IMG/VR virus record: IMGVR_UViG_2940228231_000001
Span: 1 to 40,713 of that record
Origin: a virus
Strand: one strand, 5' to 3'
Length of the DNA: 40,713 nt
Position numbers and translations under genes: made by a program. A model generated the notes under the pieces. That model saw only the letters and a program-made list of their open reading frames with translations. It ran no database searches and was not told the DNA's origin. This document shows, one piece after another, positions 506 to 38,616 of the stretch; the first letter of the stretch is position 1, and each line of letters begins with the position of its first letter.

Positions 506-1237
506 TTAAATCTTTTCTACATATTTTTCGGTGATATTGCACCAGCCATTTTCGGTGTATCCCCAAGTTTTGTCCGTATTGTGATCTCGGATATTTAAGG
601 TGGTTCCCTTTTTGTACGAACCAGTAATCTTAAAAGATGTTCCTGGGCCAGTACGGATATTGAGTTTTCCTTTGGTTTTACATTTCTCCAGAACCTTCAA
701 CCCCTCAACAGCCTCAGAAGTCTGAGTCAACTCCTCACGAAGTTTTTTCCATTTAGTCGTCTCTACATATGGCAATGGACAAAGTTTGCCGTTGACGTCA
801 AAATGACGTACAACCTTGTCATCCTTGATTCCATATTTCTTCTGTAGCGACTGAACCAGTTCAGCAGTGTTTTTGATTGTTGCGTCAGTAATATATATTT
901 TACCACTTTTTTTCTTGCAACACATTTCAATGCTAATGCTGTTTTTGTTTGTGCATTTTCCGAAAAGCTTTCCGCCATATTTTGCGTAAGGGCTGCCCTG
1001 GTCTAATAATCCGCTAGAGCCTACTGCCCATGCAGCGTTTTTGTCTTCAACAGACTGCCATATACTTGTGTCATCCACAAAGTAATGAGCTGATGCTTGA
1101 CGGTCACCGCCCGCAAAATAGTCTACGTTATTTTTGGCGGTTGATGTGGTTCCTACGTAGTGGATAACGATATATTTAATATCTCTATTGGTATATTTGT
1201 CATGATTATATTTTGAGATTTTCTTATTGATCTTCAT
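506..1237 (-). CDS. Endolysin: N-acetylmuramoyl-L-alanine amidase (Amidase_2/PGRP-like) with C-terminal SH3-like wall-binding domain
   Basis: YIVIHYVG...SAHYFVD...AAWAVG...SISIEMC...VVRHFDVNGKLCP amidase pattern. The C-terminus GKLNIRTGPGTSFKITGSYKKGTTLNI...WGYTENGWC is SH3_3-like. It is the last gene of the lysis cassette. Confidence 0.9.
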   Translation of the reverse strand: MKINKKISKYNHDKYTNRDIKYIVIHYVGTTSTAKNNVDYFAGGDRQASAHYFVDDTSIWQSVEDKNAAWAVGSSGLLDQGSPYAKYGGKLFGKCTNKNSISIEMCCKKKSGKIYITDATIKNTAELVQSLQKKYGIKDDKVVRHFDVNGKLCPLPYVETTKWKKLREELTQTSEAVEGLKVLEKCKTKGKLNIRTGPGTSFKITGSYKKGTTLNIRDHNTDKTWGYTENGWCNITEKYVEKI

Positions 1238-1529
1238 TCTCTTCTTCCCCTTTTCGATTGTCTAGATAGTTTTCGTCTAAACGTAACATTGCCTTGACGT
1301 GTTCTTTAAAGTTATCTCCCCCAATCGCGGCTTGGGTGAAACTGTTGTTTTTCCAAAATGCTACTAAAGCGGACCCTACAGTAAATCCCAACGTGCATAA
1401 TTGGTAAACAGTCTCCTCTGATAGTTCAAGAGGTGTCCACCCCAAAATAGCACATACCTGATTGAGCAGTGCCACAATTAGTACAATCAATCTAGCGATC
1501 GTTCCTGCTGAAATTTTTCCTTTGTTCAT
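1224..1529 (-). CDS. Holin (phi LC3 / Phage_holin_4_1-like)
   Basis: Two hydrophobic helices (IARLIVLIVALLNQVCAILGW; LCTLGFTVGSALVAFW), then WKNNSFTQAA and a charged C-terminal tail. It sits immediately upstream of and overlapping the endolysin. Confidence 0.8.
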   Translation of the reverse strand: MNKGKISAGTIARLIVLIVALLNQVCAILGWTPLELSEETVYQLCTLGFTVGSALVAFWKNNSFTQAAIGGDNFKEHVKAMLRLDENYLDNRKGEEENEDQ

Positions 1530-1544
1530 TTTTCTTTCCTCCTA

Positions 1545-1769
1545 TTATTTATGATATTCTTCCAAATCTTCAATCCGATGATTTATCACCTTTATCTGTT
1601 CTTCCACTACTGGCATTCGCCGAGCAAAGTCGTTATGTTCCTTGACCTCTTTAGTCAGTTCATCCAACTTGTACTCAGTCAGATTGCTTGACTTCCTGAT
1701 GCCGTATGTTGTTCCCGCAAACATGCCAACCGCAGATATGCCTGCTACTATAATCGGTGTCCAATCCAT
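1545..1769 (-). CDS. Small N-terminally anchored coiled-coil membrane protein (BhlA/UviB-type holin-like)
   Basis: One N-terminal TM (WTPIIVAGISAVGMFAGTTYGI) followed by a charged helical region. It is the first gene of the lysis cassette. Confidence 0.55.
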   Translation of the reverse strand: MDWTPIIVAGISAVGMFAGTTYGIRKSSNLTEYKLDELTKEVKEHNDFARRMPVVEEQIKVINHRIEDLEEYHK

Positions 1770-1803: not shown

Positions 1804-1829
1804 ACAAAAGAGAGCCACCAATGTGACTC
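1804..1829 (-). terminator. Weak candidate terminator/attenuator after the radical SAM gene
   Basis: Minus strand GAGTCAC-attg-GTGGCTC (7 bp with one G-U pair) followed by TCTTTTGTT. Confidence 0.35.
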
Positions 1830-1837
1830 CCTACATA

Positions 1838-3142
1838 TTATCTCTTGCTTAGTTTTTCTAGCATAGCATATTCATCTTCGCCGATGATTGGCACTGCCCA
1901 TTCTTTTGGACAATTCATTGCAAAGATTCTAGGGTCTCCCTGCTTCTTGTAATACTTGTTCCAAAAGTATGCATTTGCAAGAGACGCTGCTTTGTGCATA
2001 TCGCAGATATTGATGACTCTGCTATTCGGCGTACCGTTAACTTGGTAGTTGTACGCTGTACACCAACTGCAACCAGCTCCAATAGGACAGTCAAAACACT
2101 CATCAGTAGATTGACTTTTTCTGGTTATGCAGCCAAGACAACTTAATCGGTCTTTGTGACACTGTGATGGTGCTAGCCCATTATCTACATCTCCAATAAT
2201 GTAAGGCTCTTGATCATCACCAAGACTACTCTCCATGTACCTTAGACACGGATAAAGCACGCCATCTGGGTCACATGCGAGCATCACACCATTTCCACCA
2301 CACCAGTTCTTGTTGTCGCTAGCAGGTAGTTTTTTGTAATTGTCCTCATTAAAAAAGGCATAATAGAGTTCATCCACGTCATTATCAATGACATAATCTG
2401 CAAACTGCTTAAGCTGCTTATATAATTCCTGAGCGTGAGATATTTCCCAACCGTCTTCATATACACAATTAATGTTAATTTCCCTGTATCCAAGGTCTAC
2501 CATATGCTTGCTTGCCTCATAAACATAAGACACATTGGCAGGTGCAACAGTAATCTTGCTTCCCATATAAAAGCCATTGGACATCCAATCTTTGATTGCT
2601 GCCACCGCAATATCATAAGAAGGCTTCCCATCAGGAAACAATCTACACATGTCATGTAGTTCTTTATTCCCATCTAGTGTTACGCTAAACGACATATGAT
2701 TACGGTGCTTGGTTAATACTCGTTGCACCTCTGGGTCATTATATAGTACGCCATTAGAGCAAATTCCAACTCTAAACTTATCTGCCCAAGGGTGATTTAA
2801 TCGCAGCGCCTCACCTCGAAAGTAGTCAACGATTTGGTCTATCAACGTAATCTCAAGTAACGGCTCTCCACCGATAAAGTCCAGTATTATCCCCGGAGAA
2901 GTTACCGGGTCAATATATGACCCGATACCTTTATCTCCGATCAATAACAAATCTACCAGCTTTTTAGCAACGTCTAAACTCATTCTGCGTTTGCCTTTAT
3001 GAGTTTGGTAACAATAACTGCAGGCCAAGTTGCAATCATCGGTTACCTGAAAAGTCACAGATTTTGCAAGCATTCCTGGTGGATATTCCGGGTAAAGCCT
3101 TGCTAACCAGTCGCAGTATTCTTCTACCTTTGGTATTGGCAT
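1838..3142 (-). CDS. Radical SAM enzyme with C-terminal SPASM-type auxiliary Fe-S domain (anSME-like fold; peptide/protein maturase candidate)
   Basis: CNLACSYC is the CxxxCxxC motif, and IGGEPLL is a SAM-binding glycine motif. C-terminal pattern is C-x12-G-x4-C (CGGNGVMLACDPDGVLYPC), then CFDCPIGAGCSWC, then a later Cys. Start overlaps the upstream stop (TAATG), with GAGGAGG RBS. Confidence 0.9.
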   Translation of the reverse strand: MPIPKVEEYCDWLARLYPEYPPGMLAKSVTFQVTDDCNLACSYCYQTHKGKRRMSLDVAKKLVDLLLIGDKGIGSYIDPVTSPGIILDFIGGEPLLEITLIDQIVDYFRGEALRLNHPWADKFRVGICSNGVLYNDPEVQRVLTKHRNHMSFSVTLDGNKELHDMCRLFPDGKPSYDIAVAAIKDWMSNGFYMGSKITVAPANVSYVYEASKHMVDLGYREININCVYEDGWEISHAQELYKQLKQFADYVIDNDVDELYYAFFNEDNYKKLPASDNKNWCGGNGVMLACDPDGVLYPCLRYMESSLGDDQEPYIIGDVDNGLAPSQCHKDRLSCLGCITRKSQSTDECFDCPIGAGCSWCTAYNYQVNGTPNSRVINICDMHKAASLANAYFWNKYYKKQGDPRIFAMNCPKEWAVPIIGEDEYAMLEKLSKR

Positions 3143-3483
3143 TACATGACCTCCTCAAACATACCATTTGTGCGAATTTCGCAGTCACACATCTGTGTAA
3201 CATATAACAGTCTAGTTCGAAAATCGATTTGCCAGTTGACGTTATGATTGCCAAATGTTGGGGCAACATAGCGTTCTGTGATTTCGGCTTTTGCATTTTC
3301 ATAATGCATTTTAGCTTCGATTTGCTTTTTTTCATAGGCCTTAAAGGCTTCTGTTTCAAGTACCAATTCTCCATAATTCGTAATAAGAAACGCTATATTG
3401 TCTTTCGTCATTTCGTTCTCGTAAAACGTCCGTTCTAAGTAACTGATTACTTTTTCATCTATTTTCATTCTAAATTTCTTCAT
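3142..3483 (-). CDS. 113-aa protein of unknown function, translationally coupled to the radical SAM gene (candidate maturase partner)
   Basis: ORF with TAATG overlaps at both ends. No recognisable motif. Helical N-terminal half, with MCDC near the C-terminus. Confidence 0.7.
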   Translation of the reverse strand: MKKFRMKIDEKVISYLERTFYENEMTKDNIAFLITNYGELVLETEAFKAYEKKQIEAKMHYENAKAEITERYVAPTFGNHNVNWQIDFRTRLLYVTQMCDCEIRTNGMFEEVM

Positions 3484-3806
3484 TATTTCGCCCCCATATC
3501 GCCGTCAAACATGATATCAATTTTTTCTTCGTAGTCGTTGATGACCCTAACGTAATCGATAAATCCGGTTAGACTATATACTTTGTCACCTTCTTTTTCG
3601 ACTCCGCCATTTTCTGTCACAATTCTAACCTCTGACGTTTTTGTTTCATCAGCGAATAGCTCTTTTAATTTTGCATCATCTGCTTCTCGTGCCTTTTTAC
3701 CTGCAATCGATATAACTGTTCTTGCACCATCAGTTCCAAAATATCCGTTTGAAAATCTGATGTTAGTAATTTCCACCTGTGTTTTGTCTTTAAATATTAA
3801 TTTCAT
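3483..3806 (-). CDS. 107-aa protein of unknown function in the Cys-repeat/rSAM cassette
   Basis: GGAGGG RBS 7 nt upstream of the ATG. Starts 3 nt after the stop of the Cys-rich gene. No recognisable motif. Confidence 0.7.
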   Translation of the reverse strand: MKLIFKDKTQVEITNIRFSNGYFGTDGARTVISIAGKKAREADDAKLKELFADETKTSEVRIVTENGGVEKEGDKVYSLTGFIDYVRVINDYEEKIDIMFDGDMGAK

Positions 3807-3809
3807 TTT

Positions 3810-4325
3810 TTATCCCTCCAAATTATTTTTAACTGTAACTGTTGATTGCCCACTGCATGTGTTAAAACATGTAGATGAGCATTGGCCCAAGCAACTGCTT
3901 TTACAATCACCTGCGCATCCTGTATTGCAACTACCACCGCAGCCATCACTACATCCCGAACACCCGCTGCATGCTTGACATCCCGTACAAGTTCCTGAGC
4001 AACTGCTACAGCTTGATGAACAAGCTCCGCCGCAGCCAGAACAGCCTGTGCAGCCTCCACAGCCAACCATACATGCTGCAGTGCAACCTTGACACCCTCC
4101 GGTGCATGAGGCAGTGCAACCTTGACACCCTCCGGTGCATGAGGCCGTACAGCCTGGCGAACATCCGATCCCACAACCCGTGCAGCCTCCTGAGCAAGTG
4201 CCCGAACATCCAGTGCAATCCTTAGTACATGCTGCGGTACAGACGCCCAAGCAACCAGTGCATGGTCCGCAACCGAGGCACGTACCTTTGCACGCTCCCG
4301 AACACGTTGACGATGAACACGCCAT
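3810..4325 (-). CDS. Hyper-cysteine repeat protein: 171 aa with 43 Cys, spaced almost exclusively CxxC/CxxxC, rest mostly G/S/T/A
   Basis: Start set at the internal ATG (MACSSSTCSGAC...), preceded by AAAGGAG plus 7 nt. The longer 195-aa ORF has no RBS. The Cys-repeat pattern is paralogous to the C-terminus of the upstream gene. Confidence 0.7.
   Translation of the reverse strand: MACSSSTCSGACKGTCLGCGPCTGCLGVCTAACTKDCTGCSGTCSGGCTGCGIGCSPGCTASCTGGCQGCTASCTGGCQGCTAACMVGCGGCTGCSGCGGACSSSCSSCSGTCTGCQACSGCSGCSDGCGGSCNTGCAGDCKSSCLGQCSSTCFNTCSGQSTVTVKNNLEG
4081..4146. repeat. Tandem 2 x 33-bp repeat (32/33 identical) inside the Cys-repeat gene
   Basis: gtgcaaccttgacaccctccggtgcatgaggc(a/c) occurs twice, encoding two copies of the 11-aa unit CTASCTGGCQG. 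Confidence 0.9.
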
Positions 4326-4339
4326 ATATTTTCTCCTTT

Positions 4340-4807
4340 CTACACCATCGTGCTGCTTGCACATGCTGTTCCACATGTTGCCGTGCAGCCTTGGCATCCA
4401 CTATCGCAAGCGCCTGAGCACCCGTTGCATCCACCGATGCAACTTCCAAAACACAGACCACTACATGCACCTCTGCATGAGCTAGTCTCACCTTCTATCG
4501 ATTCACTCGATATCAAATCCAAGTAATCATCTAAACTATTTACTGATGGAAGCGGTTCACCTTTTCGAACAAAACTTGCCTCCTGGTCTTCTACTGCATA
4601 GAGAATATTTATGGTTTTTTCCCCATGTTCGGCAAGAACTCTCGAACCCTTTTCTGGGACTTCTACAAAATCGTATTCTTCCTCACTGAATTCTCTCAGT
4701 GAACCAAAATCAATCGGTTCTTCGTCTTGGTCAAGTCCTGCTAGCGAACGTCTTTCCATTTCGGCTTTCACTCTTTGTTTTATCGCCTTAAATTCATCGG
4801 CTGTCAT
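4340..4807 (-). CDS. Bipartite protein: acidic N-terminal domain of about 108 aa plus 47-aa C-terminal tail with 11 Cys (CxxxC/CxxC)
   Basis: GGGGGTGAG RBS. The ATG is 4 nt after the tail-fibre stop. C-terminus is SSCRGACSGLCFGSCIGGCNGCSGACDSGCQGCTATCGTACASSTMV. Confidence 0.75.
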   Translation of the reverse strand: MTADEFKAIKQRVKAEMERRSLAGLDQDEEPIDFGSLREFSEEEYDFVEVPEKGSRVLAEHGEKTINILYAVEDQEASFVRKGEPLPSVNSLDDYLDLISSESIEGETSSCRGACSGLCFGSCIGGCNGCSGACDSGCQGCTATCGTACASSTMV

Positions 4808-4811
4808 ATGC

Positions 4812-6161
4812 TCACCCCCATACAGATGTTACCGTAACCCATTCTGAGCCATCATAATACTTAGCAACGCCAAAGGTTGCAGTATCAATCCAAAGCACGT
4901 TGGTTTTCTCTGGTTGAGTTTCGCTGACGATTACGCCGCCACCCGAAAAATTTGCTAATGCGTTAGCAATCACCTTATTTTTAACTGCATTATCTGAAGT
5001 AGTTGACAATTCATCGTCTAAAATGACTGTAGCATCACTGCCTGCTGGTCCGCGTTCTCCTTGAATTCCTTGTAATCCTTGAGGCCCTGTGTCGCCCTTT
5101 TCTCCTTTTTGCCCTTGTATACCTTGTTCGCCTTTAGGACCTTGTACTCCAGTATCTCCCTGTTCTCCCTTCTCGCCCTTTTCTCCTTTAACTCCCTGCG
5201 GTCCTCTATCTCCAGTATCTCCTTTTTCACCTTTTGCTCCCTTTAATGGGCCATTATTAACCCAAACGTTATTCAATCCATCAAATATGTAAATATCATA
5301 CGGAGCTATAACCCCAATGCTATAAGCGTCTCCAGTTGTAGGACTCGTTACTGATGAGTCGAGCAAATCTACTGTTGTAAAGTGACCTAGTATCTGAAAT
5401 CCATCACCTTTTGGACCTTGTTCACCCTGTATTCCCTGATCACCTTTCTCGCCCTTTGGTCCTGGGACACCTTGTTCTCCTTGCGCACCCATCGGGCCTT
5501 GTTCTCCAGTATCTCCTGGTTCTCCAGGCAATCCTTTAGAACCCTGTGGCCCTTGTTCTCCACGTGGTCCTTTTAACATTTCCAACTGCTCACTTGTAAA
5601 GTCGGCGAAAGTAAATGGATCTCCTTTGTCGCCTTTCATGAACCCGAAATCATGTCTTTTACCAGCTTTTGTGATAACAATTAAATGTTGATTTTCATCA
5701 ATGATAATTGTTTCAATGCTTTCTGCCAGTACTTGATTTGATTTCTCAGTTGATGCAATTAGCATGTCAATAATTTGTTCATAGATATCTTCTGTCGGAG
5801 GTTCAATAGTCTTTCCAGCAATGTATCCTCCATTAACCAATACTGGAAATGGCAAGCATTCCATATCCGCATCTTCTCTGACGGTCGAAATTACTTCGCC
5901 ATTCATCATACCTACAACAGAACATACGAACCCACCCTGCTTTATCACTTCCCACGGAATTAGGCATTCGTCATTTACTAACAACTGATATTTCTTGATG
6001 CCATTTCGCTCAAATATTGCCGTTTTGCACATGCCTGCCCATTCCGGAGAAAACTTGAACACTGCATTCAAGTAGTTTTTGCTTCCTGCAGCAAGTATCC
6101 GTTTTTCTTTGCATGAAGCATGCTGTCCGTTTATTTCAAAATGTACATTTACCATCAACAT
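4812..6161 (-). CDS. Collagen-like tail fibre protein
   Basis: Two long G-X-Y tracts ([57 protein letters not shown] and [67 protein letters not shown]). C-terminal VLWIDTA...KYYDGSEW module. The true start is probably the ATG at 6155, which has better RBS spacing. Confidence 0.85.
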
Positions 6162-6221: not shown

Positions 6222-9200
6222 TTAGTTGCCATATGCGATTTTCTTTGCACCTTCAATTAAAGCATTAACTTTCCAGTTGTAGTCATCATGATAGTCATAA
6301 GCATCTGCGTAAGCACGATCCATTCTACCAACACGAATGTAGCTGGCTATTTCATATACAGCTAGGTTACGCTTCTTTCCAAGGATATAGTCATAATCAA
6401 CTCCGTATTCTTCCATTGTATTGATGACTTCATACGCTGTGCCTAAATCCTCATTCTCAAGGGCATCGTCACAAGCACCACCAAGTGCCGTCTTAACTTT
6501 CTTGTCAACAGACTCTCTATCTACACCTGCATCAATTAACCTGCTAGCTTCTGATTCTATCTTGTCAGCATCATTGCTTTCCAATGCCGTCTTAAATTCC
6601 TTTGAGAATGCCTTTGAAATCCTGCCACCAATATATTCAGAGTCAACACCATTAGCCTTCATGTCATCTTCAATCATTCTAGCAACATCCATATCTCCAT
6701 TTTTCATCGCCTTGATGTAGTATGCCATGAACTTTGGTCTGTTTTCTTCCAGGGTGATATCATATCTGTATTTCGCAGATAAGTATCCAATGTACTCCTC
6801 AGCTACAAAACACTTTGCAATTTGCTTTGCAGCAGCTTCAGCGTCTCTTGTTACATTGCCTAACGGAATTCCTGTAACAGAACTGATTGCAGAGGCCATT
6901 AACTTTGTCTTTTCGTATATTGTGTATTTGTCAGAACTCCACATTTTAATAGAATTCACTAGGTCTGCAATGCCATCCATATCCATTCTCGACACTTCAA
7001 ACCCTTGTGCCATAGAGCTAACATCACGGAGCAGTGGCAATAGGTTTGCTGGATTTGCATTATCAATAAAGTTTTCTAGGATGTAGTTTTGCCATCTTTC
7101 TAAATAATCTTTGTCGTCATCATCCTCACCTCTTGCTCTAAGTGCATCAATCAGTGCTGCTGCCATTGATACTGCAACTGCATTTGCCACATATACGCTT
7201 GTCACTCGTGACACTCTAGCTGCAGCACCTTTTTTATTGCCGTTTTTAAAGTCTTTCCCTGCTAGTACAAGCTCTGTACGCATCATGTTGAATGTTTTTG
7301 TAGGCTCTGCCATGAATGATGTAATCATCTTGCTTGCTAAGTCTTGGCTACGCATAATTTGCGATCTATGGAATACCGAGTCAACTACTTGAGTACGGTC
7401 AACCACATACGAGAACCGTTCGTTAACAGCTTTCCAATATGCATCCGTTCCGGGCTTCAAATCTTTTCGCTTAGAATTAATTTCTTTCTTAACACCGCTC
7501 CATATTGTTGCCCATGTAATGTCATCGGCCTTTCCGTACATTTCCATGAACAATGTATCGACAATGTTTCGCTTGCCAATGAAGATATCTCTCATGCTTC
7601 TGGAAACATCAGTGTTATAAAAACCCCAACTTTTCCACCTTGCAATCTGACAATGCTCTTGCATTTCTTTTAAGCTAATCTTTCCTGGAGTCATAAGATA
7701 TGCAGGATTTATCACTGTTGCCGCTCTAACAATAGCAGTAGGTTGTTGTACCAACACTCTAAGATTTGCTCCAATTTTTGCCTTTTTGTAATTCGCAAGT
7801 AACTTATTGGACAGATTAGTGTCGTTGTTTCTAGCATGATTCTGATTTACGTCATTAACAAACCTGCGAATGTAATTGTTCACGTTGTCACCAAATGATT
7901 GTTGAATGCTTTTCTGCACTGTGGCCGATATTTTCCCGTCACTATTTCTTTGCTTGTAATTATATACTCGTTCAAAATCAGTGAGTGCAGGGACTAATGA
8001 GTTGTACATGGACATCGTATTCACGTGCTGTGTAAATACATTAAAGATATCGTCAACCACAATTGGGTTGTTCGCTTTCATTACAGTATTTTTTGTAAAT
8101 CCTACATTCTTAATCTTAGATGCCTGAACTTTGTCGAAACTCTCATCAAGGAAAGCATCTGAAGATTTAATCGGGAAATAGTGTTTTTCAGTAAACTTCT
8201 TGTACCCATATAGTTTCATAGAAGTTTCGTTACCCCACTCAGAACAGGTAGTCCCCATGAAACTCTGTAGCTCATCAGCGACCTTTTTCTGTTCTGCAGT
8301 AAGACTACCAATGATTCTTTTTACATCATCAATTGTTGGCATTACTTGTGCGTCTGACAATCTGCGCTTCGCAAATGATTTTGTCAGCTTCTGTCTAGTC
8401 TTGTCTACCACCCCAATTGGCGATGCAGTTATTCCAGAACCAAGGATATGATCCACAGCTTGTTCTCTGTTCATTAAGCAATAAAGCGACATGACCTGTG
8501 ATGGTACTAACTCTATAATTCCTCCGTTTTCTAAAGTGAACTTTTTTGCTCTTGCATTATCATCAATCCATTTCTTCACTTTGTACTTCTTAGCAAGCTC
8601 GGCAATAAAATCTTTGCCCTGCGATACATTATCAATATGCTTATCAAATCCACGTCTCATATTTTGGTAAAGCTCAAACATCTTCCCACCAACAGTTTCA
8701 AACATATCAATCGGATTGATATTTGTTTCATTGAAGAACCTATTAATTTCGCCTCTGAATCCTTCATACTGTTTCTTGGCTTTCATGGTTGCGTTGTCTG
8801 CAATTATGGTATCTCCATACTCTGAAATACTTTCTTTTAGGCCGTCACTGAAAGTTTTATTCATTGTGGACAGTGAGAAGCGAATATGCTTAATTAACCG
8901 ATACACTTGCTCAAGCTCATCAATGGACAGGTCCGAAAATCTTTTCCCATCTAGCTCCGCACTGAGTATGCTAAGCGCATCTTGTATACTCTCATCAATC
9001 TCAATGGTGGAATCTTCATTCTTTGCTAGCTTCTCATATTCATTTCTGAGTTCAGCCAGTTTCATTGTTCTTCGAGATGGGCCATACTTCCGCGTCCAGT
9101 TATCTGTCCTTGTCGTGCTAAAATCGAATCCAGACAGCATTGTAGCAATAGCCTTTGCGTATCCATGAGGGATATGTTTTGTCTCTGTTGGTCTCAACAA

Positions 9201-12200
9201 GCTTTCAGACATCCACTGAGTATAGGCTTCGATTCTTGAAGTGTAGTATTTCTTTTCTTTCTTGTCTTTATTCTGTTGCTTAATATCATTGATTTTATTC
9301 TTATAAAACTCATCTTTCTTATCAAGTCTAGACTTCATACGTTCTTTCTGTTTTTTCATCAAAGCATTTCTCTCAGCTTTTACTTTATCAACAGCCTTCA
9401 TCTTTTCCTCATGTTTTAGATCCGCAAATGTTTTTTTCTGCGCCAAGTCATATGACATCTGCAACACATCTTTCGCAATCGTATCCCTGAACTCAGCTAT
9501 CTCACCTTCTGAATATTCCTCCACATAAGGTTTAATACTTTCAACCACTTCCAGGATATTGTAAAGCTGGTCTACTTCATTTGTGTATTCCTGAGCATCA
9601 AACACTCCTGGATGTGTTTCAGCTAGCTCTTGATAAAAGGTATCAATCGGAATGCCTGAGTTCTTGGATAGTTTTACAATTCCGAAATGTGATTTTCTCA
9701 GTTCATTGAAATCGTCGATATCATTCCAATAGTTTTCACTGAGCCTCAAAGTTGTTTTCCTTAAGGTGTCACGCAATCCCTTGTAATCCGTCCACATTTC
9801 GTCATGAAGTATTTCCATTTTGTCCGTGATTTTATCCGCTACATTAAGGCATAAATCATCAATAAGGTTCCAGTTCCCTTCAGGTTTTCGCATCTCCGCA
9901 AAGACTTGTTTCACATCAGTCATTACACTTTCGTGCAAAATGCCATTGCGCTTGCCAAGATATGCTTCAATTAGTCTTGAGACCGCAATCCCAGTCTGTT
10001 TTGGTTCTGGTTCGGCAAACTTAGACCTCTTGAATTCCGCTTTTAATTTTTTATTGGTTTTTTCTAGCTCAGACACCTTCTGTTTTAGGTTGTCACTATC
10101 ATCCTTAATCTGGAATTTTCCTACATCTGAAACAATCTCATTTATTGTCAAACTATTGACATCATTCAGTTGTTGGAGTAAACTAAATAAAGAAGCAGTG
10201 TTGCCTCCGCGAGTACTTCCCGATTGGGTCGCCGCGGTCTTGGAAGGCACGCTGTTTTTTTGTACCATCTCAAGTTCATGAAGGTAATAACCTTGATATG
10301 CACTAGAAGTATCTCTATTTACAACAACCCCAACATAATAATCATCCATTCTAGTTGTTATTAGATTCCAAATTTTTATTGGAGCTGACAAAACAATAGT
10401 ATCATAGCCCCGCATCTTCCAGTTGTAATGTGCATCAATAATTTTTCCATTTTCAATCACTTCTGTAAGAGACTTAAATGCAACTGCCTTCATTCTCCCC
10501 ACTCCGTGACCTATCGATGATTTCACTCCTTTGTGCTCAAGAGAAATATCTCCGAGCACTGGATGATGCACTTCATTCCCAATGCTATCAAAATAATCTG
10601 ATACCTGAGTAACTAAGTCGATCTGACCCTTGGCAAACTCTTTACCTGTGAGCGTAGTCACTGGGTTCATCTCTGTCACGGCTTTCATGTTAGCGAGCAC
10701 TTGTGTCTTATCTATGTTAAATCTCTTGATTTCACTTTCTTTCATCTGATATCTGATGTCTGTGTCAGTTGTGGGATTTTCGTTCGCTACAGACTTAATC
10801 TGCTCCGAATAGAACGGAATTACAACAGTGTGAATGTCTCCACCGTTTTTCCCACCTTGGTCAATAATCCCATCATACCCTTTATCTTTTAAATAAGCCG
10901 TGATTGCATCTGGTATTGAAGTCCATGCATGAGTTGTGCCTTTTTCTATATCTCTTTCAAGACTCTCTACCCATTCTAGTGGATTACGATTTCTTTTATC
11001 CCACATATCAGAATTGGCGGATTCGCTTTCGTAAACTGACAAGTCAGCAGATTCAAGCCAAGTTTTTAAATCAGCTATTAAGGATTGATCGATATCTGCA
11101 GTTGACATAGGATTGACTACATTTAAATATGTTTCATATACTTTTTCATCTCTTAAATACGGGTCGTTATAGTATACGCCTTCTACTCCTGCAAGCTCAA
11201 GTACTTCCATGAACCTTGATTCCTCATTGATTAAGTCTCCACTATTAAGCCAAGAATCAACCAATGCCTGTAATGCGTTCCCTTTTGCATATCTAAGGTC
11301 ATAAGAACCATTCCCAATATTATTGCCTGGAATAGTAATAATGTTTTCTACATCGTCATCAAATGCGATTTCCTTAGCCTTAGTTTTAATCTCTTCTCTT
11401 TCTGCATTAGACAACTTCCCCCACAATTCGACAATGCTCATATCTTTCCCATTGTAATTAATACGGAATTGTGTTTCATATGAGTCATATTCGTTATCAT
11501 AATTAATAGATGTGTCTTGCTTATCCTTGCTGTAGTTATCAGCAATATCCTTGTTGTCAGTAAAAAAAGCCATTGGTCCACTTGTAGCACGTTCAGGGTC
11601 AAAATAGTTTCCTACTCTATCTGCTCTTGATGTCCCATGATACATAACCTTGAGATGCCCATTATTATCACGCACTTTGGATTTTTTGAAGTATTCAGCT
11701 TGATTCTCTGATAAAGAATTGCCTTCATTATCTTTAAGTGAATACTTCTCTTTTGTCTCGGATACTGCTTTCACACCAATGCTCTCATTCAAAGCTTTAG
11801 CCCAAAGCGACTGCGCTTCTTCCACAATCCCAAGTGCCTCAAGCCAGTCACCCTTCTTGTTTCCTGATGCCATTCTATGCAGCGTGTCCAACAATGCCCT
11901 AATACCGTCAACCAATTTTTCAGCTAACGAACGATTTTCATTAACTAATGACTCAATCATGTCCACATCTTTAAAGAAAACATCTGTAGCGTCTGCAAGT
12001 AATTCATCTTCAGCCTGAGACACAGTAAGGTCTACACCGTTTCTTGCGTATCTATCAATCATGCCTCTAATCTTAGCATCATATTTTTTCTGGTCAGCTT
12101 CATAAAACTTTTTGAATACAAATTGCTTCAATTCATTATATGCTTCTGGTGCTGTCTCCTGCAGGTTATGTGTTAATTCATGTTTAAGCACATCAAAGAT

Positions 12201-14657
12201 AGGATTTTGCGACTTTGCAGAGATATAAATCGTTCCATCTTGATATTTGCCATTAGCTACGTCCTTTTGCCCAGCAACATCTATCTGATCCACAACCACA
12301 ACATTCTTACCCGTAACCTGCACAAATGTGTTTAATGCTGCAGATTTCTCCTTACCGAACTGTTTCTCATTCTTTTCGGACATAGTAAGATTGCCGATAC
12401 GTCTCTTAGACTTAACGACCTTTTTCTGCGCTTGCTTGACTTGCTCTTGCTCAATATGGTATATCTGATTTCCCGCATTATATGCAGCCATTTTCACTGC
12501 TTCAGGAATAACCTTATCATAGGTTTTTAATATCTTTCCGTAGTCATAATTAACTTGGCCTCCTTGATAGTATAGATTGAACCCTGCTACGTATTCAGGA
12601 AGTTTCTTGAAATCAATATCCTCCATACCCTTATTGAATATTGCTGCAGTCTGTTCATCAAGATTCACCGTGAGGGCCTGAGAAGCCATTTCTCTTGCTT
12701 CTTGTCTAGCCTCCTTAATGACGCCTTCCTTCTGCCTTGCTTTCATTCCTGCTGCATATATCGACAATTCATCTATGGTACTCTGATTAGAGAAAGGCAG
12801 CTTTACGCCTGTTTCCATTTCTATGATTGCACGTGCGTCTTCATTGCCTACTGCAGCAACATTGAAATCTTGTGCTGTTGCTGTTCCCAGTACAATTCTA
12901 GCAATAGGTGTTGATACCGCTTTCGATGTTTCTGCATCTCTTCCACTGGCTGTCATCATAGATTCTATCTCGGCTGCTTTTCCAGCTACTCTCTTTGCCA
13001 TAACTTGGTCAACCATAACTTGCTCTACTTCGCTCCCAACACGTCTATCGTTCTTCATCATGTCAGTAGTACCCGCTGTAGCATGCAAATTTTGTACATA
13101 TTCCTGTTCAGCTATATTAGCCTTTTCTATCATGGCCTTCTCGGTTTTATATTGCTCCTGATAGATTTTATTAGCCAAGTCAACTACTTGTTCATTCAAA
13201 ACAGCTTCTCCACTAGATTGTTGTTTTTCTAGGCTTGTCGCAAAACTATATGCTTCAGACTTTTCTCCTTGCGCTTTTCCGGCCTTGATTAATTCAGTTT
13301 TCTCGGACTCGGAAAAGGTTGCTGTTTTCTGAGTTCCCTTTGCCTTATTTACAATAGCACTACCGCCGCCAAGAGCACCAGACATAGCTGCGCCCATAAC
13401 AAAATCACTGCCCATCTGCTGTAAATAGCCAGTTTTTATTGGATGCTTATACTGTTCAATTGCGTTCTTGTCGTAGATCGATTCAATAGCGGGCTGAAAC
13501 AAATCGGATACAACTTCTTCTGACCCTTCTTCAATCATTCCAGAGCCAGCTTTGACTGCATTCTTGACAATCTTATACGTTAGATCCTTCGAAACGCCCT
13601 GTTTAGTTAATTTCTTAGTCAGATTATATGCGGTTCTTTCGGCCACATTGTCAAGAATACCTTTTCCAGCGGTGTTTTTCATGACATCAAACGGGGAGAA
13701 TAATTTCTCAGTTGCAGCTTCTACGGAACCACTTAATGCACCGACTAAAAGCTGTTTGTTTTTTGATGCCCCAGATTCCCTTGCAGTCATTGATGAATCA
13801 CCAAAGGAACGCAAAAACATCGGTGCCAAAATTCCAGTACCTGTAGCTGCGCCAATCGTAGCGTCACCCGCCCACTGAAGCATCTGTGAATACAAATCAA
13901 TACCGAACTGCCCTGCTTTGCCTAATCCTTCCTTCGCCTTTTCAATGTCTGCATTTCCAGCCGCTCTTAATTTGCTAGCTTTTTCTTGAATATCAGCTGA
14001 TGCTTTGTCAGCAATTGACTGAATCTCATTACGTCTTTTTTTATTGAATTCAGCCGTTTGCTTAACACTTTCTTTGATTTGTCTTTTCTCTTCGCTGGTT
14101 TTGTTAACCCATCTTCTATCATTACTACCGCGTTGTCTTGTATAGGCGTTTTGATTCTCTCTATTAATTCTCCCTTGACTAATATTGCCGTGCATAGTCG
14201 CAAAAGTATTCATGAAAGATGAACCAACATTCTTTACTGTTCCTTTAGTAGCGTTACCAATCCTGTCTCCAGCTTTGGACTCTCTTATTTGATTGTATGT
14301 GCGAGCATTACCACCATTCGTATTCATCACCTTGCTAAGTTCGCCTGCACCTGTATTCGCAGTTCTCCTGCGATTTTTAGCATTGCTAGTAGCCTTGCTC
14401 TTTCCAGAATTCTGAATGTTTACCTGGTTTGCTTTGTTATTCGTATTGAAAGTCGGCTTCTTTGCAGAAGTTGCAATATCTTTATTCGCTAACTGTTTAG
14501 AAACGGTATTCTTTGTGTTGTTTTTTGGATTGTGGTTAGGATATTTCTTATTCCAATTATTTATAATTTCCTTGTTTCGTTTCTTTTCTTCTTGATCTGA
14601 TTTCCTGGCTGATGCTATTTCTTTTTCAAACCATTTTCTGTCACTTGCTTTACTCAT
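6222..14657 (-). CDS. Giant 2811-aa multidomain virion-associated protein (polyvalent-protein-like) with HExxH metallopeptidase motif
   Basis: Single uninterrupted ORF with AAGGAG RBS. K/N/R-rich N-terminus, then Gly/Ala-rich hydrophobic segments (AGDATIGAATGTGILAPMF; GAAMSGALGGGSAIV). HELTH at aa 826-830 (nt 12168..12182). Further conserved-looking blocks VMYHGTS...FFTDNKDIADNYSK and HKGVKSSIGHGVGRMK. Confidence 0.85.
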   Translation of the reverse strand: MSKASDRKWFEKEIASARKSDQEEKKRNKEIINNWNKKYPNHNPKNNTKNTVSKQLANKDIATSAKKPTFNTNNKANQVNIQNSGKSKATSNAKNRRRTANTGAGELSKVMNTNGGNARTYNQIRESKAGDRIGNATKGTVKNVGSSFMNTFATMHGNISQGRINRENQNAYTRQRGSNDRRWVNKTSEEKRQIKESVKQTAEFNKKRRNEIQSIADKASADIQEKASKLRAAGNADIEKAKEGLGKAGQFGIDLYSQMLQWAGDATIGAATGTGILAPMFLRSFGDSSMTARESGASKNKQLLVGALSGSVEAATEKLFSPFDVMKNTAGKGILDNVAERTAYNLTKKLTKQGVSKDLTYKIVKNAVKAGSGMIEEGSEEVVSDLFQPAIESIYDKNAIEQYKHPIKTGYLQQMGSDFVMGAAMSGALGGGSAIVNKAKGTQKTATFSESEKTELIKAGKAQGEKSEAYSFATSLEKQQSSGEAVLNEQVVDLANKIYQEQYKTEKAMIEKANIAEQEYVQNLHATAGTTDMMKNDRRVGSEVEQVMVDQVMAKRVAGKAAEIESMMTASGRDAETSKAVSTPIARIVLGTATAQDFNVAAVGNEDARAIIEMETGVKLPFSNQSTIDELSIYAAGMKARQKEGVIKEARQEAREMASQALTVNLDEQTAAIFNKGMEDIDFKKLPEYVAGFNLYYQGGQVNYDYGKILKTYDKVIPEAVKMAAYNAGNQIYHIEQEQVKQAQKKVVKSKRRIGNLTMSEKNEKQFGKEKSAALNTFVQVTGKNVVVVDQIDVAGQKDVANGKYQDGTIYISAKSQNPIFDVLKHELTHNLQETAPEAYNELKQFVFKKFYEADQKKYDAKIRGMIDRYARNGVDLTVSQAEDELLADATDVFFKDVDMIESLVNENRSLAEKLVDGIRALLDTLHRMASGNKKGDWLEALGIVEEAQSLWAKALNESIGVKAVSETKEKYSLKDNEGNSLSENQAEYFKKSKVRDNNGHLKVMYHGTSRADRVGNYFDPERATSGPMAFFTDNKDIADNYSKDKQDTSINYDNEYDSYETQFRINYNGKDMSIVELWGKLSNAEREEIKTKAKEIAFDDDVENIITIPGNNIGNGSYDLRYAKGNALQALVDSWLNSGDLINEESRFMEVLELAGVEGVYYNDPYLRDEKVYETYLNVVNPMSTADIDQSLIADLKTWLESADLSVYESESANSDMWDKRNRNPLEWVESLERDIEKGTTHAWTSIPDAITAYLKDKGYDGIIDQGGKNGGDIHTVVIPFYSEQIKSVANENPTTDTDIRYQMKESEIKRFNIDKTQVLANMKAVTEMNPVTTLTGKEFAKGQIDLVTQVSDYFDSIGNEVHHPVLGDISLEHKGVKSSIGHGVGRMKAVAFKSLTEVIENGKIIDAHYNWKMRGYDTIVLSAPIKIWNLITTRMDDYYVGVVVNRDTSSAYQGYYLHELEMVQKNSVPSKTAATQSGSTRGGNTASLFSLLQQLNDVNSLTINEIVSDVGKFQIKDDSDNLKQKVSELEKTNKKLKAEFKRSKFAEPEPKQTGIAVSRLIEAYLGKRNGILHESVMTDVKQVFAEMRKPEGNWNLIDDLCLNVADKITDKMEILHDEMWTDYKGLRDTLRKTTLRLSENYWNDIDDFNELRKSHFGIVKLSKNSGIPIDTFYQELAETHPGVFDAQEYTNEVDQLYNILEVVESIKPYVEEYSEGEIAEFRDTIAKDVLQMSYDLAQKKTFADLKHEEKMKAVDKVKAERNALMKKQKERMKSRLDKKDEFYKNKINDIKQQNKDKKEKKYYTSRIEAYTQWMSESLLRPTETKHIPHGYAKAIATMLSGFDFSTTRTDNWTRKYGPSRRTMKLAELRNEYEKLAKNEDSTIEIDESIQDALSILSAELDGKRFSDLSIDELEQVYRLIKHIRFSLSTMNKTFSDGLKESISEYGDTIIADNATMKAKKQYEGFRGEINRFFNETNINPIDMFETVGGKMFELYQNMRRGFDKHIDNVSQGKDFIAELAKKYKVKKWIDDNARAKKFTLENGGIIELVPSQVMSLYCLMNREQAVDHILGSGITASPIGVVDKTRQKLTKSFAKRRLSDAQVMPTIDDVKRIIGSLTAEQKKVADELQSFMGTTCSEWGNETSMKLYGYKKFTEKHYFPIKSSDAFLDESFDKVQASKIKNVGFTKNTVMKANNPIVVDDIFNVFTQHVNTMSMYNSLVPALTDFERVYNYKQRNSDGKISATVQKSIQQSFGDNVNNYIRRFVNDVNQNHARNNDTNLSNKLLANYKKAKIGANLRVLVQQPTAIVRAATVINPAYLMTPGKISLKEMQEHCQIARWKSWGFYNTDVSRSMRDIFIGKRNIVDTLFMEMYGKADDITWATIWSGVKKEINSKRKDLKPGTDAYWKAVNERFSYVVDRTQVVDSVFHRSQIMRSQDLASKMITSFMAEPTKTFNMMRTELVLAGKDFKNGNKKGAAARVSRVTSVYVANAVAVSMAAALIDALRARGEDDDDKDYLERWQNYILENFIDNANPANLLPLLRDVSSMAQGFEVSRMDMDGIADLVNSIKMWSSDKYTIYEKTKLMASAISSVTGIPLGNVTRDAEAAAKQIAKCFVAEEYIGYLSAKYRYDITLEENRPKFMAYYIKAMKNGDMDVARMIEDDMKANGVDSEYIGGRISKAFSKEFKTALESNDADKIESEASRLIDAGVDRESVDKKVKTALGGACDDALENEDLGTAYEVINTMEEYGVDYDYILGKKRNLAVYEIASYIRVGRMDRAYADAYDYHDDYNWKVNALIEGAKKIAYGN

Positions 14658-37917: not shown

Positions 37918-37944
37918 TAAGATACAATGAATGGAGGAGATAGA

Positions 37945-38616
37945 ATGAATGTTCCTATTGGTGAAAGAATAAGAATCCTAAGGACTGGTCTCAATATAAC
38001 ACAAGAAGAATTAGGAAATAAGGTGGGAGTGCAACGTGCTGCTATCAACAAATATGAAAAAGGTGTAGTGTCTAACATCAAGAGAGATATACAAATTAAA
38101 TTAGCAGATGCATTGTGTATTGATCCTGCGACACTATTTTATGATGAAGAATTTATGCCAGAACTATATTCTGTTGCCTTGGAAAAATCAATTCCTGTGA
38201 TTGACAATAGACAATTAAGTGCCGTGCGAATTCCAGTATTGGGACGAGTTCAGGCTGGTATACCTGTAGATGCAATCGAAGAAATACTTGACTGGGAAGA
38301 AATCACCCCAGCGATGGCTCAAAACGGAACACATTTCGCTCTACAAATAAAAGGAGATAGTATGGCACCTAGGATTACTGAAGGAGATGTTGTAATCGTC
38401 CGTCAGCAAAGCGATATTGAATGTGGCGATGTGGCAGTAATTATTGTAAATGGAAACGATGCCACAATTAAAGAAGTGAAGAAATATGATGAGGGTGGAA
38501 TAACGCTGGTCCCTTTCAATCCGTCATATCCTGTAAAACGATACTCTGAAGAAGACGTGAAATCCCTCCCTGTTGAAATATTAGGAAAAGTGATTGAACT
38601 AAGAGCGAAATTTTAA
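37945..38616 (+). CDS. CI-type repressor: XRE HTH plus LexA/S24 autopeptidase domain
   Basis: ITQEELGNKVGVQRAAINKYEKG is the HTH. LGRVQAGIPV holds the Ala-Gly cleavage site (38254..38259). GDSMAP is the Ser nucleophile and ATIKEVKK the Lys. Start set at the ATG after GGAGGAGA. Confidence 0.9.
   Translation: MNVPIGERIRILRTGLNITQEELGNKVGVQRAAINKYEKGVVSNIKRDIQIKLADALCIDPATLFYDEEFMPELYSVALEKSIPVIDNRQLSAVRIPVLGRVQAGIPVDAIEEILDWEEITPAMAQNGTHFALQIKGDSMAPRITEGDVVIVRQQSDIECGDVAVIIVNGNDATIKEVKKYDEGGITLVPFNPSYPVKRYSEEDVKSLPVEILGKVIELRAKF

Follow-up and report, generated by a model that had tools for sequence, protein, structure and literature searches.

Introduction

To our knowledge, the CXXX-repeat system (TIGR04115/TIGR04116/TIGR04119), with which the locus reported here is best compared, has been defined in silico only, and we know of no biochemical study of it; a literature search found no paper on the cassette described below or on its family. 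Among other radical SAM/SPASM enzymes, QhpD introduces several thioether cross-links at Cys residues of a subunit that is retained in a larger assembly (QhpD/QhpC, quinohemoprotein amine dehydrogenase), which provides a precedent for a structural-protein target instead of a natural product, and PDB entry 5WGG presumably represents CteB, the SCIFF thioether maturase. Hardening of virions has its own precedents in the isopeptide chainmail of the HK97 capsid and in the iron-histidine sites of the T4 long fibre tip, and we know of no virion protein that depends on a phage-encoded radical SAM enzyme. PapB, a SPASM enzyme, modifies a repeated Cys motif of one substrate with several thioether links, and chemistry of this type requires an acidic acceptor, the Cys being linked to an acidic residue C-terminal to it (PMC12373016).

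Results

The window, which is the whole stretch of 40,713 nt that was analyzed (IMG/VR record IMGVR_UViG_2940228231_000001), encodes an integrase, a CI-like repressor, a terminase, a portal and a capsid protein, and it belongs to a temperate phage of a gut anaerobe, with a podovirus-like organization. An earlier note on this DNA had described a temperate phage with five consecutive minus-strand genes, each with its own Shine-Dalgarno sequence, and every detail that we checked, including the coordinates, was correct. The cassette begins 4 nt past the stop of a gene for a 449-aa collagen-like tail fibre (4812..6161, minus strand; Pfam Collagen 1.5e-23, PHROG tail fibre families), and its subsequent gaps are 14 nt and 3 nt, followed by two TAATG overlaps that were confirmed by direct reading. 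Shine-Dalgarno-like sequences (GGAGG, GGGGG, GGAGGG, AAGGAG and GGGGG) are found one ahead of every start. A consensus scan detected no promoter-like signal above background at the cassette, the genes of which are packed against or overlap one another and the fibre operon. The enzyme gene and the lysis genes are separated by 68 nt, within which lies a terminator-like hairpin with a T-run (1809..1832, minus strand), identified by consensus scan and direct reading, although 7 kb yielded 7 such sites where 4.8 were expected, which makes this hairpin weak evidence. Downstream lies the lysis cassette that the note had reported (506..1769, minus strand), consisting of a 74-aa phrog_1863 protein, an SPP1-type holin and an Amidase_2/SH3 endolysin by Pfam and PHROG matches, and serving here as context only.

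The last of the five genes (1838..3142, minus strand) encodes a 434-aa enzyme that matches the NCBIfam model TIGR04115 ('radical SAM peptide maturase, CXXX-repeat target family') at 496 bits (E 8e-149) against a curated cut-off of 350 bits, with the alignment covering profile positions 1-359 of 359 and enzyme residues 26-393. Relatives at the loci L001, L005 and L047 score 634, 379 and 543 bits. This bears out the family assignment that had been suggested from the letters. The runner-up models were PapB at 163 bits (162.6), SCIFF at 116 and QhpD at 96, the best PHROG family was phrog_1802 (1.3e-67), and the nearest solved structure by sequence was 5WGG (E 7.8e-23, enzyme residues 25-338). The radical SAM motif CNLACSYC (CX3CX2C) corresponds to C37, C41 and C44, and the SPASM set consists of C281-x12-G294-x4-C299, C349-x2-C352-x5-C358-x2-C361 and C380. 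All of these positions, which the note had pointed out, are invariant across 29 homologues, and the enzyme carries the full set of predicted auxiliary-cluster Cys of the SPASM family. Two other identities were rejected. The sulfatase-maturase alternative raised in the earlier note yielded only 55.2 bits against a cut-off of 349 (anaerobic sulfatase maturase, TIGR03942), while a PapB-type ranthipeptide maturase (NF047865) remained at 162.6 bits against 340, Asp and Glu also being scarce in the substrate.

The first two genes encode Cys-rich proteins of 155 aa (part A; 4340..4807, minus strand), with 11 Cys within the final 47 residues, and of 171 aa (part B; 3810..4325, minus strand), with 43 Cys. 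A mechanical call extends the part B ORF to 4397 (195 aa); the start at 4325 is an ATG behind AAGGAG and agrees with the 'MACS…' starts of homologues. These had been taken for two distinct substrates, yet in L014, L016, L023, L027, L062 and others the two parts constitute one ORF of 350-650 aa, which shows them to be split halves of one conserved protein. The description of the substrates as protein-sized holds, at 155 and 171 aa here and up to 650 aa in relatives. In the complete protein, a conserved N-domain of ~105 aa is followed by 19-145 Cys arrayed at Cx3C/Cx2C spacing, and the C-terminal end is again conserved. Part A runs from the N-domain through the junction motif SSCRGACSGLC into the first 11 array Cys, and part B comprises the remaining Cx3C/Cx2C array and the C-terminal end, which contains CLGQCSSTCFNTCSGQSTVTV. 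The N-domain is missing from part B.

The N-domain family was found at 44 loci and in a set of 115 representatives, where the domain is N-terminal in 114/115, in proteins of 72-660 aa, and fused to no recognizable fibre domain, being stand-alone in all 115. Its AF2 model is confident (pLDDT>=90 for 72 residues, pTM 0.73), but a Foldseek search against the PDB returned 0 matches and hence no likeness to solved fibre proteins; the only significant viral matches were uncharacterized proteins of uncultured Sipho- and Podoviridae. For the Cys array, AF2 gave a pLDDT below 50 and no defined fold. Across 45 substrates, 69% of Cys-Cys intervals are Cx3C and 28% Cx2C, and the residues between them include 3% Asp and 1% Glu; the array is rich in G, S and T, with Pro and charge nearly absent. 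The Cys frame has a dN/dS of 0.04-0.07 among close relatives, in which 64/64 Cys columns are conserved despite 10-17 TGC/TGT swaps, and between the window and L007/L008, where synonymous sites are saturated, 41-43 of 43-44 Cys columns are retained. The low dN/dS and the conserved Cys columns show that these genes are real. The arrays adjoin the enzyme gene in nearly all relatives, and a CXXX-repeat target beside the enzyme, which forms part of the TIGR04115 family definition, is supplied here by the 155-aa and 171-aa proteins. Because enzyme, partner and array are strictly co-inherited, an enzyme-substrate relation is indicated, and there is strong reason to regard the arrays as the probable substrate.

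The two remaining genes encode small proteins. The partner (113 aa; 3142..3483, minus strand), whose gene shares a TAATG overlap with that of the enzyme, adjoins the enzyme gene at >=50 loci and in 79/80 IMG/VR loci, nearly always abutting its start. The note had put it forward for comparison with TIGR04116 ('CXXX repeat peptide modification system protein'), and a relationship was only partly upheld: the direct search gave no match even at E<=10 (cut-off 50 bits; a true member, the 106-aa protein of L047, scores 57.9), and only 1/32 phage-type partners matched the HMM, at E 0.005, whereas aligning the profile of 32 phage partners with that of 4 TIGR04116-type proteins by hhalign gave 86.6% probability, E 4.5e-6 and 89 colinear columns, which suggests remote homology. 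The single-sequence AF2 model of the partner was unusable (pLDDT 42). The 107-aa protein (3483..3806, minus strand), which has no Cys and no significant match in Pfam or NCBIfam, had been listed as unknown. Its family, which starts with 'MKxxLKDGTE…', is present at 19 genome loci and in 48/80 IMG/VR loci, where its gene separates those of substrate and partner or comes right after that of the enzyme, and the label is better corrected to that of a frequent accessory part of the system.

At least 335 viral contigs carry the cassette behind tail-fibre genes, and 77/80 IMG/VR loci have the N-domain substrate. Its recognizable flanking families are tail-fibre, baseplate and lysis families, with a few cellular exceptions (TrkH, thiamin pyrophosphokinase) that are consistent with prophage borders. 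Phage tail, lysis or phage-family genes occur <=8 kb away in at least 36/46 phage-type genome loci, and the tail regions concerned are, among others, myovirus-type, collagen-fibre (siphovirus-like) and podovirus-like. At L065-67 the cassette is inside a myovirus baseplate/fibre block, with Baseplate_J, Mu_Gp48 and Phage_tail_fib ahead of it and more fibre-like genes behind, so that tail genes stand on both sides and the lysis genes are ~5 kb away. By its neighbourhoods the cassette is a phage module, for which phage linkage, listed as unusual in the earlier note, is the rule and not an oddity of this contig.

The substrate gene usually comes directly after the fibre gene, and the preceding product often has a characteristic ending: the last ~40 residues of the window fibre form a conserved C-terminal module of the 'LWIDT…KYYNG…VWG' type, and the window, 19 non-redundant genome loci and 21/21 module-bearing IMG/VR loci have an ORF with this LWIDT…VWG ending immediately ahead of the substrate gene. 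This synteny favours a link to the tail. However, the module also occurs in phages that have no Cys-array gene (L072, L073), and because it is not exclusive to cassette phages, the adjacency may only mean insertion behind the last fibre gene. At L001, a homologue of the N-terminal domain of the window fibre is apparently encoded just downstream of the enzyme, as judged by reading the sequences.

The phage form constitutes a clade separate from the classical system, which is represented by the sister clade L047-L050, with 42-65-aa precursors, a TIGR04116 partner, a TIGR04119 domain (255 bits in L047), an AgrB-like gene and ABC exporters; in both clades the enzyme is paired with Cys-repeat targets. 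The TIGR04119 'CXXX repeat peptide maturase' domain was absent among the matches shown for the cassette proteins of the window, and in the 434-aa enzyme the TIGR04115 match takes up the available length. In place of short precursors with a leader, the window has the substrates of 155 and 171 aa. The scanned window ORFs included no ABC transporter or exporter and no leader peptidase, their sole peptidase domain being the S24 domain of the CI-like repressor, in agreement with the earlier statement that exporter and leader peptidase are missing.

Discussion

The cassette is a real, widespread phage variant of a family defined in silico only. What the analysis establishes is the family to which the enzyme belongs, the conservation of a four-part cassette, selection acting on the Cys frame and, in phages, a strict association with tail-fibre genes. 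Because the kit recurs behind fibre genes, it may represent an undescribed, enzyme-driven chemical modification of a tail-linked protein. We tentatively favour the explanation that it is a late-gene protein-maturation cassette belonging to the tail-fibre module, and hold this with slightly less than even confidence. The TIGR04115 enzyme would act with the partner encoded just upstream, often together with the 107-aa accessory, on a dedicated protein made of the globular N-domain and the long Cys array, here divided between a 155-aa and a 171-aa polypeptide. Judging from its nearest characterized relatives, the enzyme would most probably turn many Cys thiols into S-C (thioether) cross-links, before lysis and in the reducing cytoplasm of an anaerobic host. 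The product might be a covalently laced rod or knob, insensitive to protease and redox and cooperating with the fibre encoded upstream, and its likeliest arrangement would be a distal virion appendage docked via the N-domain. The thioether chemistry, which we infer from the nearest enzyme families, is proposed with moderate confidence, and the virion or fibre location with confidence that is moderate to weak. The tail-module explanation gains from the fibre-like behaviour of the array, the length of which varies between conserved ends in a G/S/T-rich sequence with little Pro or charge, and from the apparent lack of RiPP-style processing among the scanned ORFs. Against it count the N-domain, which is never fused to a fibre domain and has no structural match to solved fibres, part B, which the enzyme would have to recognize without an N-domain, and the load on a slow enzyme class, for which dozens of cross-links per polypeptide would be heavy; in addition, the site behind the last fibre gene is a classic one for cargo genes.

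It is doubtful, though well worth weighing, that the cassette is such cargo (a 'moron') whose product is a giant RiPP-like, modified Cys-rich molecule outside the virion. Such a molecule would work outside the cell to the advantage of the lysogen population or of the phage, whether as bacteriocin, signal, or binder of metal or mucus, and since phage lysis releases it, no exporter would be required. Cargo is commonly carried between the last tail-fibre gene and lysis, where the window cassette is located. The sister clade is a classical peptide system with exporters, the N-domain, at ~105 aa, might serve as a large leader like those of the Nif11 and NHLP families, and both the 115 representatives free of fibre-domain fusion and the LWIDT modules without a cassette count in favour of this reading. 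However, no leader peptidase turned up among the scanned ORFs and there is no immunity gene, a 7-fold range of array length (19-145 Cys) is unlike a defined bioactive compound, and the genes are tightly packed into the fibre operon with no promoter-like signal of their own above background. Retention in three tail architectures and the L065-type position between tail genes and ~5 kb from lysis also speak against cargo. The strict adjacency to fibre genes would suit an assembly factor, the Cys-array protein or the whole cassette being a transient scaffold or chaperone for folding or trimerization of the neighbouring fibre that does not remain in the finished particle. Genes for small fibre-assembly proteins are typically found after fibre genes, and the 107-aa accessory changes place within the cassette; as many as 145 Cys and a radical SAM enzyme of its own are, however, more than a chaperone should require, and LWIDT fibres do not generally need the cassette, since such fibres exist without it. 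We consider this role improbable.

Distinctly improbable, too, is an array that binds metal ions or iron-sulfur clusters through its Cx2-3C repeats in the manner of a metallothionein, with the enzyme carrying out some other change (anSME-like Cys oxidation, epimerization or methylation) in place of cross-linking. Metal-thiolate proteins have similar Cys spacing and G/S/T-rich spacers, the acidic acceptors for PapB-type links are scarce, and the low-confidence array model shows no defined fold. Nevertheless, the nearest enzyme families by score are thioether-forming maturases, the sulfatase-maturase score is 55 against 349, and the strict co-inheritance noted above argues for an enzyme acting on the array. 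That the Cys-rich ORFs might go unexpressed, as shadow frames in a GC-rich repeat or as the remains of one decayed gene, can be given hardly any credence: several frames are open on both strands across 3800-4500 and the substrate is split in the window, but the purifying dN/dS, the in-frame continuity from N-domain to array in many fused homologues, and the finding that many independent assemblies have the split form, complete with a Shine-Dalgarno sequence of its own, a conserved 'MACS' start and conserved ends of the short forms, already contradict an artefact.

The cassette shares with the CXXX-repeat peptide system an orthologous enzyme above the cut-off and targets with a Cys every 3-4 residues, and beside the enzyme gene it has one for a ~100-aa partner that is probably remotely homologous. 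Unlike that system, the phage form has no TIGR04119 domain, AgrB-like gene or ABC exporters, it has a partner that does not reach the TIGR04116 cut-off, it is located in tail-fibre modules, and its targets, instead of 42-65-aa peptides, are proteins of 155-650 aa that carry a globular N-domain and as many as 145 Cys. PapB/PapA (freyrasin) is the second-best enzyme family at 163 bits, but the phage enzyme is far under the cut-off of 340, and PapB relies on a short leader and an RRE and yields a small peptide product; as Asp and Glu make up only ~4% of the inter-Cys residues, PapB chemistry cannot simply be copied here. CteB (5WGG) has the same radical SAM plus SPASM build and is the closest solved structure by sequence, yet it modifies a single small peptide target and has an N-terminal recognition domain, the alignment starting from its residue 95, whereas the phage enzyme has a separate partner instead. 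For QhpD (TIGR03906) the phage enzyme reaches 96 bits against a cut-off of 453, and QhpD relies on acidic acceptors, makes three links as opposed to dozens, and serves a cellular enzyme complex, not a virus. The stabilization of HK97 and T4 virions is autocatalytic or metal-mediated and differs in this from the proposed enzymatic route; the likeness lies in the proposed purpose, the hardening of an exposed part of the virion.

Identity of the maturase and of the small cassette proteins

The 434-aa enzyme of the cassette (1838-3142, minus strand) had been proposed to be a CXXX-repeat maturase, and a hidden Markov model check bore this out, the enzyme matching TIGR04115 from end to end with 496 bits (cut-off 350). 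The next NCBIfam families were PapB (163 bits), the SCIFF maturase (116 bits) and QhpD (96 bits), the last of which is a protein cross-linker. An identity as a sulfatase maturase was rejected, the anaerobic sulfatase maturase model giving 55 bits. The radical SAM CX3CX2C motif and the SPASM cysteine pattern are present as the earlier note had described, and both are invariant among 29 homologues. By sequence, the closest solved structure is 5WGG, which we take to be CteB. The TIGR04115 match starts at residue 26 of the enzyme, whereas the matches to the SCIFF model and to 5WGG start at about their position 95, indicating that the enzyme is without the N-terminal recognition domain that the SCIFF maturase and 5WGG carry.

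The 113-aa protein (3142-3483, minus strand) had been put forward as the TIGR04116 partner of this enzyme family. It does not match the TIGR04116 model, but a profile-profile comparison of its family with the true TIGR04116 proteins of the classical peptide clusters L047-L050 gave a colinear match (86.6% probability, E 4.5e-6), and we treat it as a putative remote homologue of that partner. Its family adjoins the enzyme gene, nearly always touching its start, at at least 50 loci and in 79 of 80 IMG/VR loci; a single-sequence AF2 model of the protein was useless (pLDDT 42). The 107-aa protein (3483-3806, minus strand) is an accessory component of the system; among the IMG/VR loci, 48 of 80 have its family, as do 19 genome loci, with the gene either between the substrate and the partner or just past the enzyme. 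NCBIfam, Pfam and PHROG gave no significant match to any of the four small cassette proteins.

One probable cysteine-rich substrate, split in the window

Relatives of the cassette were fetched from genomes (58 loci), from IMG/VR (6 loci, then 80) and from metagenomes (3 loci); many are close relatives of one another, and the gene calls in them are our own crude ORF calls. Cysteine-rich ORFs were found within about 3.5 kb of the enzyme gene, usually upstream, in nearly all close relatives. In the window, the lengths, cysteine counts and Shine-Dalgarno sequences of the five minus-strand genes, together with the gaps of 4, 14 and 3 nt and the two TAATG overlaps, were all verified. The two cysteine-rich proteins, of 155 aa (4340-4807) and 171 aa (3810-4325), had been read as separate substrates; they are instead the halves of one protein, which many relatives encode in one ORF of 350-650 aa (L014, L016, L023, L027 and L062). 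The description of the substrates as protein-sized holds.

The fused substrate is built of three parts: a conserved N-domain of about 105 aa (…LK.KVKAEM.RR..GSL..Y…YDF…EHG.K.I.PLL…), closed by the near-invariant junction SSCRGACTGLC; a cysteine array of highly variable length, with 19 to 145 Cys; and a conserved C-terminal end, either …C.STCF.TC.GQ… or …CS.QCFG.A. The 155-aa protein of the window corresponds to the N-domain and the first 11 Cys, and the 171-aa protein to the remaining array and the conserved end. The same substrate is split in L001, L007-L012, L024 and L033, where the 'MACS' start is conserved. A programmed frameshift joining the two ORFs was rejected, since an ATG with a Shine-Dalgarno sequence of its own opens the second gene 14 nt past the stop, and since both the 'MACS' start and the ends of the short form are conserved.

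Across 45 substrates, 69% of the Cys-Cys intervals are of three residues and 28% of two, and the spacer residues are mainly G (31%), S (26%), T (13%), A (7%) and N (5%), with D at 3% and E at 1%. The cysteine frame is under strong purifying selection (dN/dS 0.04-0.07); 64 of 64 Cys columns are kept despite 10-17 synonymous TGC/TGT swaps, and between the window and L007/L008, where synonymous divergence is saturated, 41-43 of 43-44 Cys columns are retained. On both strands at 3800-4500, other frames also contain several ORFs of 70-195 aa that overlap, and GC content over the array genes rises to 0.49 compared with about 0.40 elsewhere. Given the selection on the cysteine frame, these ORFs are shadow frames of a TGY/GGN-rich repeat, and such frames readily mislead annotation. 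In L067, the array gene is divided into pieces of 118 and 127 aa by the public gene calls.

An AF2 model built on a 72-sequence alignment predicted the N-domain confidently (72 residues with pLDDT of at least 90, pTM 0.73) and the array as disordered. Foldseek found no match to the N-domain model in the PDB; in BFVD, its sole significant matches were uncharacterised proteins of uncultured Siphoviridae and Podoviridae, with most of the model aligned. Word-indexed protein searches with the N-domain and with the 113-aa protein each returned the query itself only, which we attribute to both evolving too fast, and the two families were gathered instead by jackhmmer over the fetched loci and by an exhaustive HMMER search. 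The latter placed the N-domain at the N-terminus of proteins of 72-660 aa in 114 of 115 hits, and none of the 115 showed a fusion to another domain. Variants of the arrangement were also seen: an array protein without the N-domain beside a 569-aa enzyme (L044:6962-9701), an array followed by a non-Cys domain (L058:8001-9923), and a substrate gene downstream of the enzyme in L029, L031 and L046, with two substrate genes in L031.

Phage context and linkage to the tail module

The window is a 40.7-kb contig with the source name 'Clostridiales Family XIII bacterium PM5-7', and the phage aboard it is confirmed as temperate by a tyrosine integrase (39431-40618, plus strand), a CI-like HTH/Peptidase_S24 repressor (37927-38616, plus strand) and a C-5 cytosine DNA methylase (29176-30738, minus strand). 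It further encodes a Sak annealing protein, large terminase, portal, major head protein, internal virion protein and tail protein; no tape measure, tube or sheath was found, and the phage is accordingly podovirus-like. The gene for a 2811-aa polyvalent protein (6222-14657, minus strand; phrog_22978, 770 bits) lies between those for internal virion proteins and the fibre, so that the protein is likely to be a virion component that is ejected; it has an HExxH motif and, at residues ~997-1085, an ART-PolyVal ADP-ribosyltransferase domain. The collagen-like tail fibre (4812-6161, minus strand) immediately precedes the five cassette genes, which are followed by a phrog_1863 protein, an SPP1-type holin and an Amidase_2 endolysin. 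In the 68-nt gap past the enzyme gene, a hairpin with a T-run that resembles a terminator (1809-1832, minus strand) lies directly 3′ of the stop codon; this suggests that the enzyme gene may be the last of the tail operon, with the lysis genes in part separate from it.

The survey of neighbourhoods showed that this phage context recurs around relatives of the cassette. Phage tail, lysis or phage-family genes lie within 8 kb at at least 36 of 46 phage-type genome loci, a proportion obtained from local seeds and extra PHROG scans. Relatives are encoded on at least 335 IMG/VR stretches; the enzyme variant P0080 was seen on 171 contigs, and a different 90%-identity cluster has 938 member sequences. 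The hosts are Lachnospiraceae, Oscillospiraceae, Eubacteriaceae and relatives; L016 comes from Anaerolentibacter hominis CSJ-1 and L010 from Eubacterium pyruvativorans i6. The same cassette is present, unannotated, in GenBank MT835573.1, and no near-identical DNA was found among GenBank phages. In the myovirus-type P0080 context, the order is tape measure, LysM, YQBQ, sheath initiator, Baseplate_J, Mu_Gp48, Phage_tail_fib and a 200-aa protein, then the cassette (substrate, partner, enzyme), proteins of 240 and 760 aa, a reverse transcriptase, further genes and an endolysin. In the collagen-fibre context of L005, a collagen fibre is followed by the substrate, a 170-aa protein, the partner, the enzyme and lysis genes. 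The position of the cassette is maintained across three tail types.

Among 136 flanking ORFs, the tail and baseplate families were Phage_tail_fib, Mtd_N (in four ORFs), BppU_N, Mu_Gp48, Collagen, Peptidase_S74/G2, Tail_P2_I and DUF6558; the other recognisable families were of lysis, with a few cellular ones (TrkH, thiamin pyrophosphokinase) that are consistent with prophage borders. In L065 (14795-16072), and also in L066 and L067, an RVT_1 reverse transcriptase lies about 3.5 kb past the enzyme, beyond a 760-aa fibre-like protein; phages of this type probably also diversify a receptor-binding protein by a diversity-generating retroelement.

The gene preceding the substrate very often ends in a module of about 40 aa, 'GGV…ATAP..T..LWIDT.NGG..KYYNG..WV.V..VWG', carried by proteins of 85 to 974 aa; a 200-aa family is the second common upstream class. 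This LWIDT module is adjacent to the substrate in the window fibre, once each at 19 non-redundant genome loci, and in 21 of 21 IMG/VR loci that have it. A tblastn search with the 55-aa end of the fibre gave no match, and a degenerate DNA pattern for the module retrieved six stretches only. We had considered the module as a docking site specific to the cassette, but this idea was withdrawn, since L072 and L073 have the module without a Cys-array gene behind it. In L068 (804-4130; IMGVR_UViG_3300013414_000264, minus strand), two tandem small proteins ending in LWIDT…KYYNG…VAWG precede a 425-aa protein whose long repeats are of the SNG/GTC type and, after it, a different, unclassified radical SAM enzyme (CNLNCTYCY, best NCBIfam score 28 bits), which may be an analogous cassette of repeat protein and radical SAM enzyme behind a fibre gene.

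Possible chemistry and role of the product

That the enzyme would act on the Cys arrays is well supported by their co-inheritance in two architectures. Thioether cross-linking would be our best guess at the chemistry, by analogy, since all of the nearest enzyme families carry it out. PapB-type chemistry needs an acidic acceptor (PMC12373016), and acidic acceptors are rare in the arrays, which argues that the chemistry would not be PapB-like in detail. A metal-binding array with a different chemistry is, in our judgement, the least probable of the readings considered here.

A putative link of the cassette to the tail fibre is supported by synteny, and the array also has the character of a spacer whose length varies while its ends are conserved. 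A product associated with the fibre is the reading to which we give most weight, at a little under even confidence. The site of the cassette is also a typical site for cargo genes, which favours a product released by lysis; we consider this unlikely, and a role restricted to assembly more unlikely again. These weightings reflect that synteny is the sole link to the tail, that neither a fusion nor a fold match was found, and that cargo is typically carried at this site. The fuller version of the fibre-associated reading is held more tentatively: a widespread group of phages of gut bacteria and other anaerobes might use a radical SAM enzyme of its own to lace the array with thioether or related S-C bonds by the dozen, and display the product on the distal end of the tail fibre.

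The cassette points to an unrecognised post-translational modification of the virion or tail, and the chance that virions are here modified in a new way is substantial. Such a modification could alter how the phage recognises its host, or how stable its particles are, in the reducing and proteolytic gut environment. If the fuller reading is true, this would be the first enzymatically cross-linked structural protein of a virion, the stabilisation of the HK97 capsid being autocatalytic and that of the T4 long fibre tip metal-mediated, and the first 'RiPP-type' chemistry at protein scale used for building a virus particle; the chemistry of radical SAM peptide maturases would be extended from peptides to proteins, at up to 145 sites. 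With four or five small genes and natural substrates of 11 and 43 Cys, the cassette is a clean, self-contained test system. Callers of ranthipeptide-type clusters may score these prophage tail modules as natural-product clusters.

Comparison with classical CXXX-repeat peptide clusters

The enzyme family is already named in NCBIfam/TIGRFAM, and what is new is the phage-type variant, on which nothing relevant was found in the literature searched; to our knowledge, TIGR04115 and TIGR04116 are named families without a known chemistry. The Lachnospiraceae loci L047-L050 (37-40% identity; for example, L047:7221-13629) are classical CXXX-repeat peptide clusters. They encode an AgrB-like membrane protein, a TIGR04115 enzyme with the CXXX repeat peptide maturase domain TIGR04119 fused or adjacent, a TIGR04116 partner, two Cys-rich peptides of 42-65 aa with a conserved …PRWCPCQG.C… junction, and ABC exporters. 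L047 also has a LytTR regulator and a histidine kinase upstream, which suggests that its peptide is of the quorum-sensing type.

In a neighbour-joining tree, computed without support values, all of the phage-type enzymes fell in one clade, to which L047-L050 were sister. Should the fuller fibre-associated reading be true, L047-L050 with their small exported peptides would exemplify a natural-product pathway recruited for virion construction, or the reverse. TIGR04119, the AgrB-like gene and the exporters of the classical clusters are all absent from the phage type, which differs further in its protein-scale substrate with an N-domain of its own, its divergent partner, its extra accessory protein and its linkage to the tail module.
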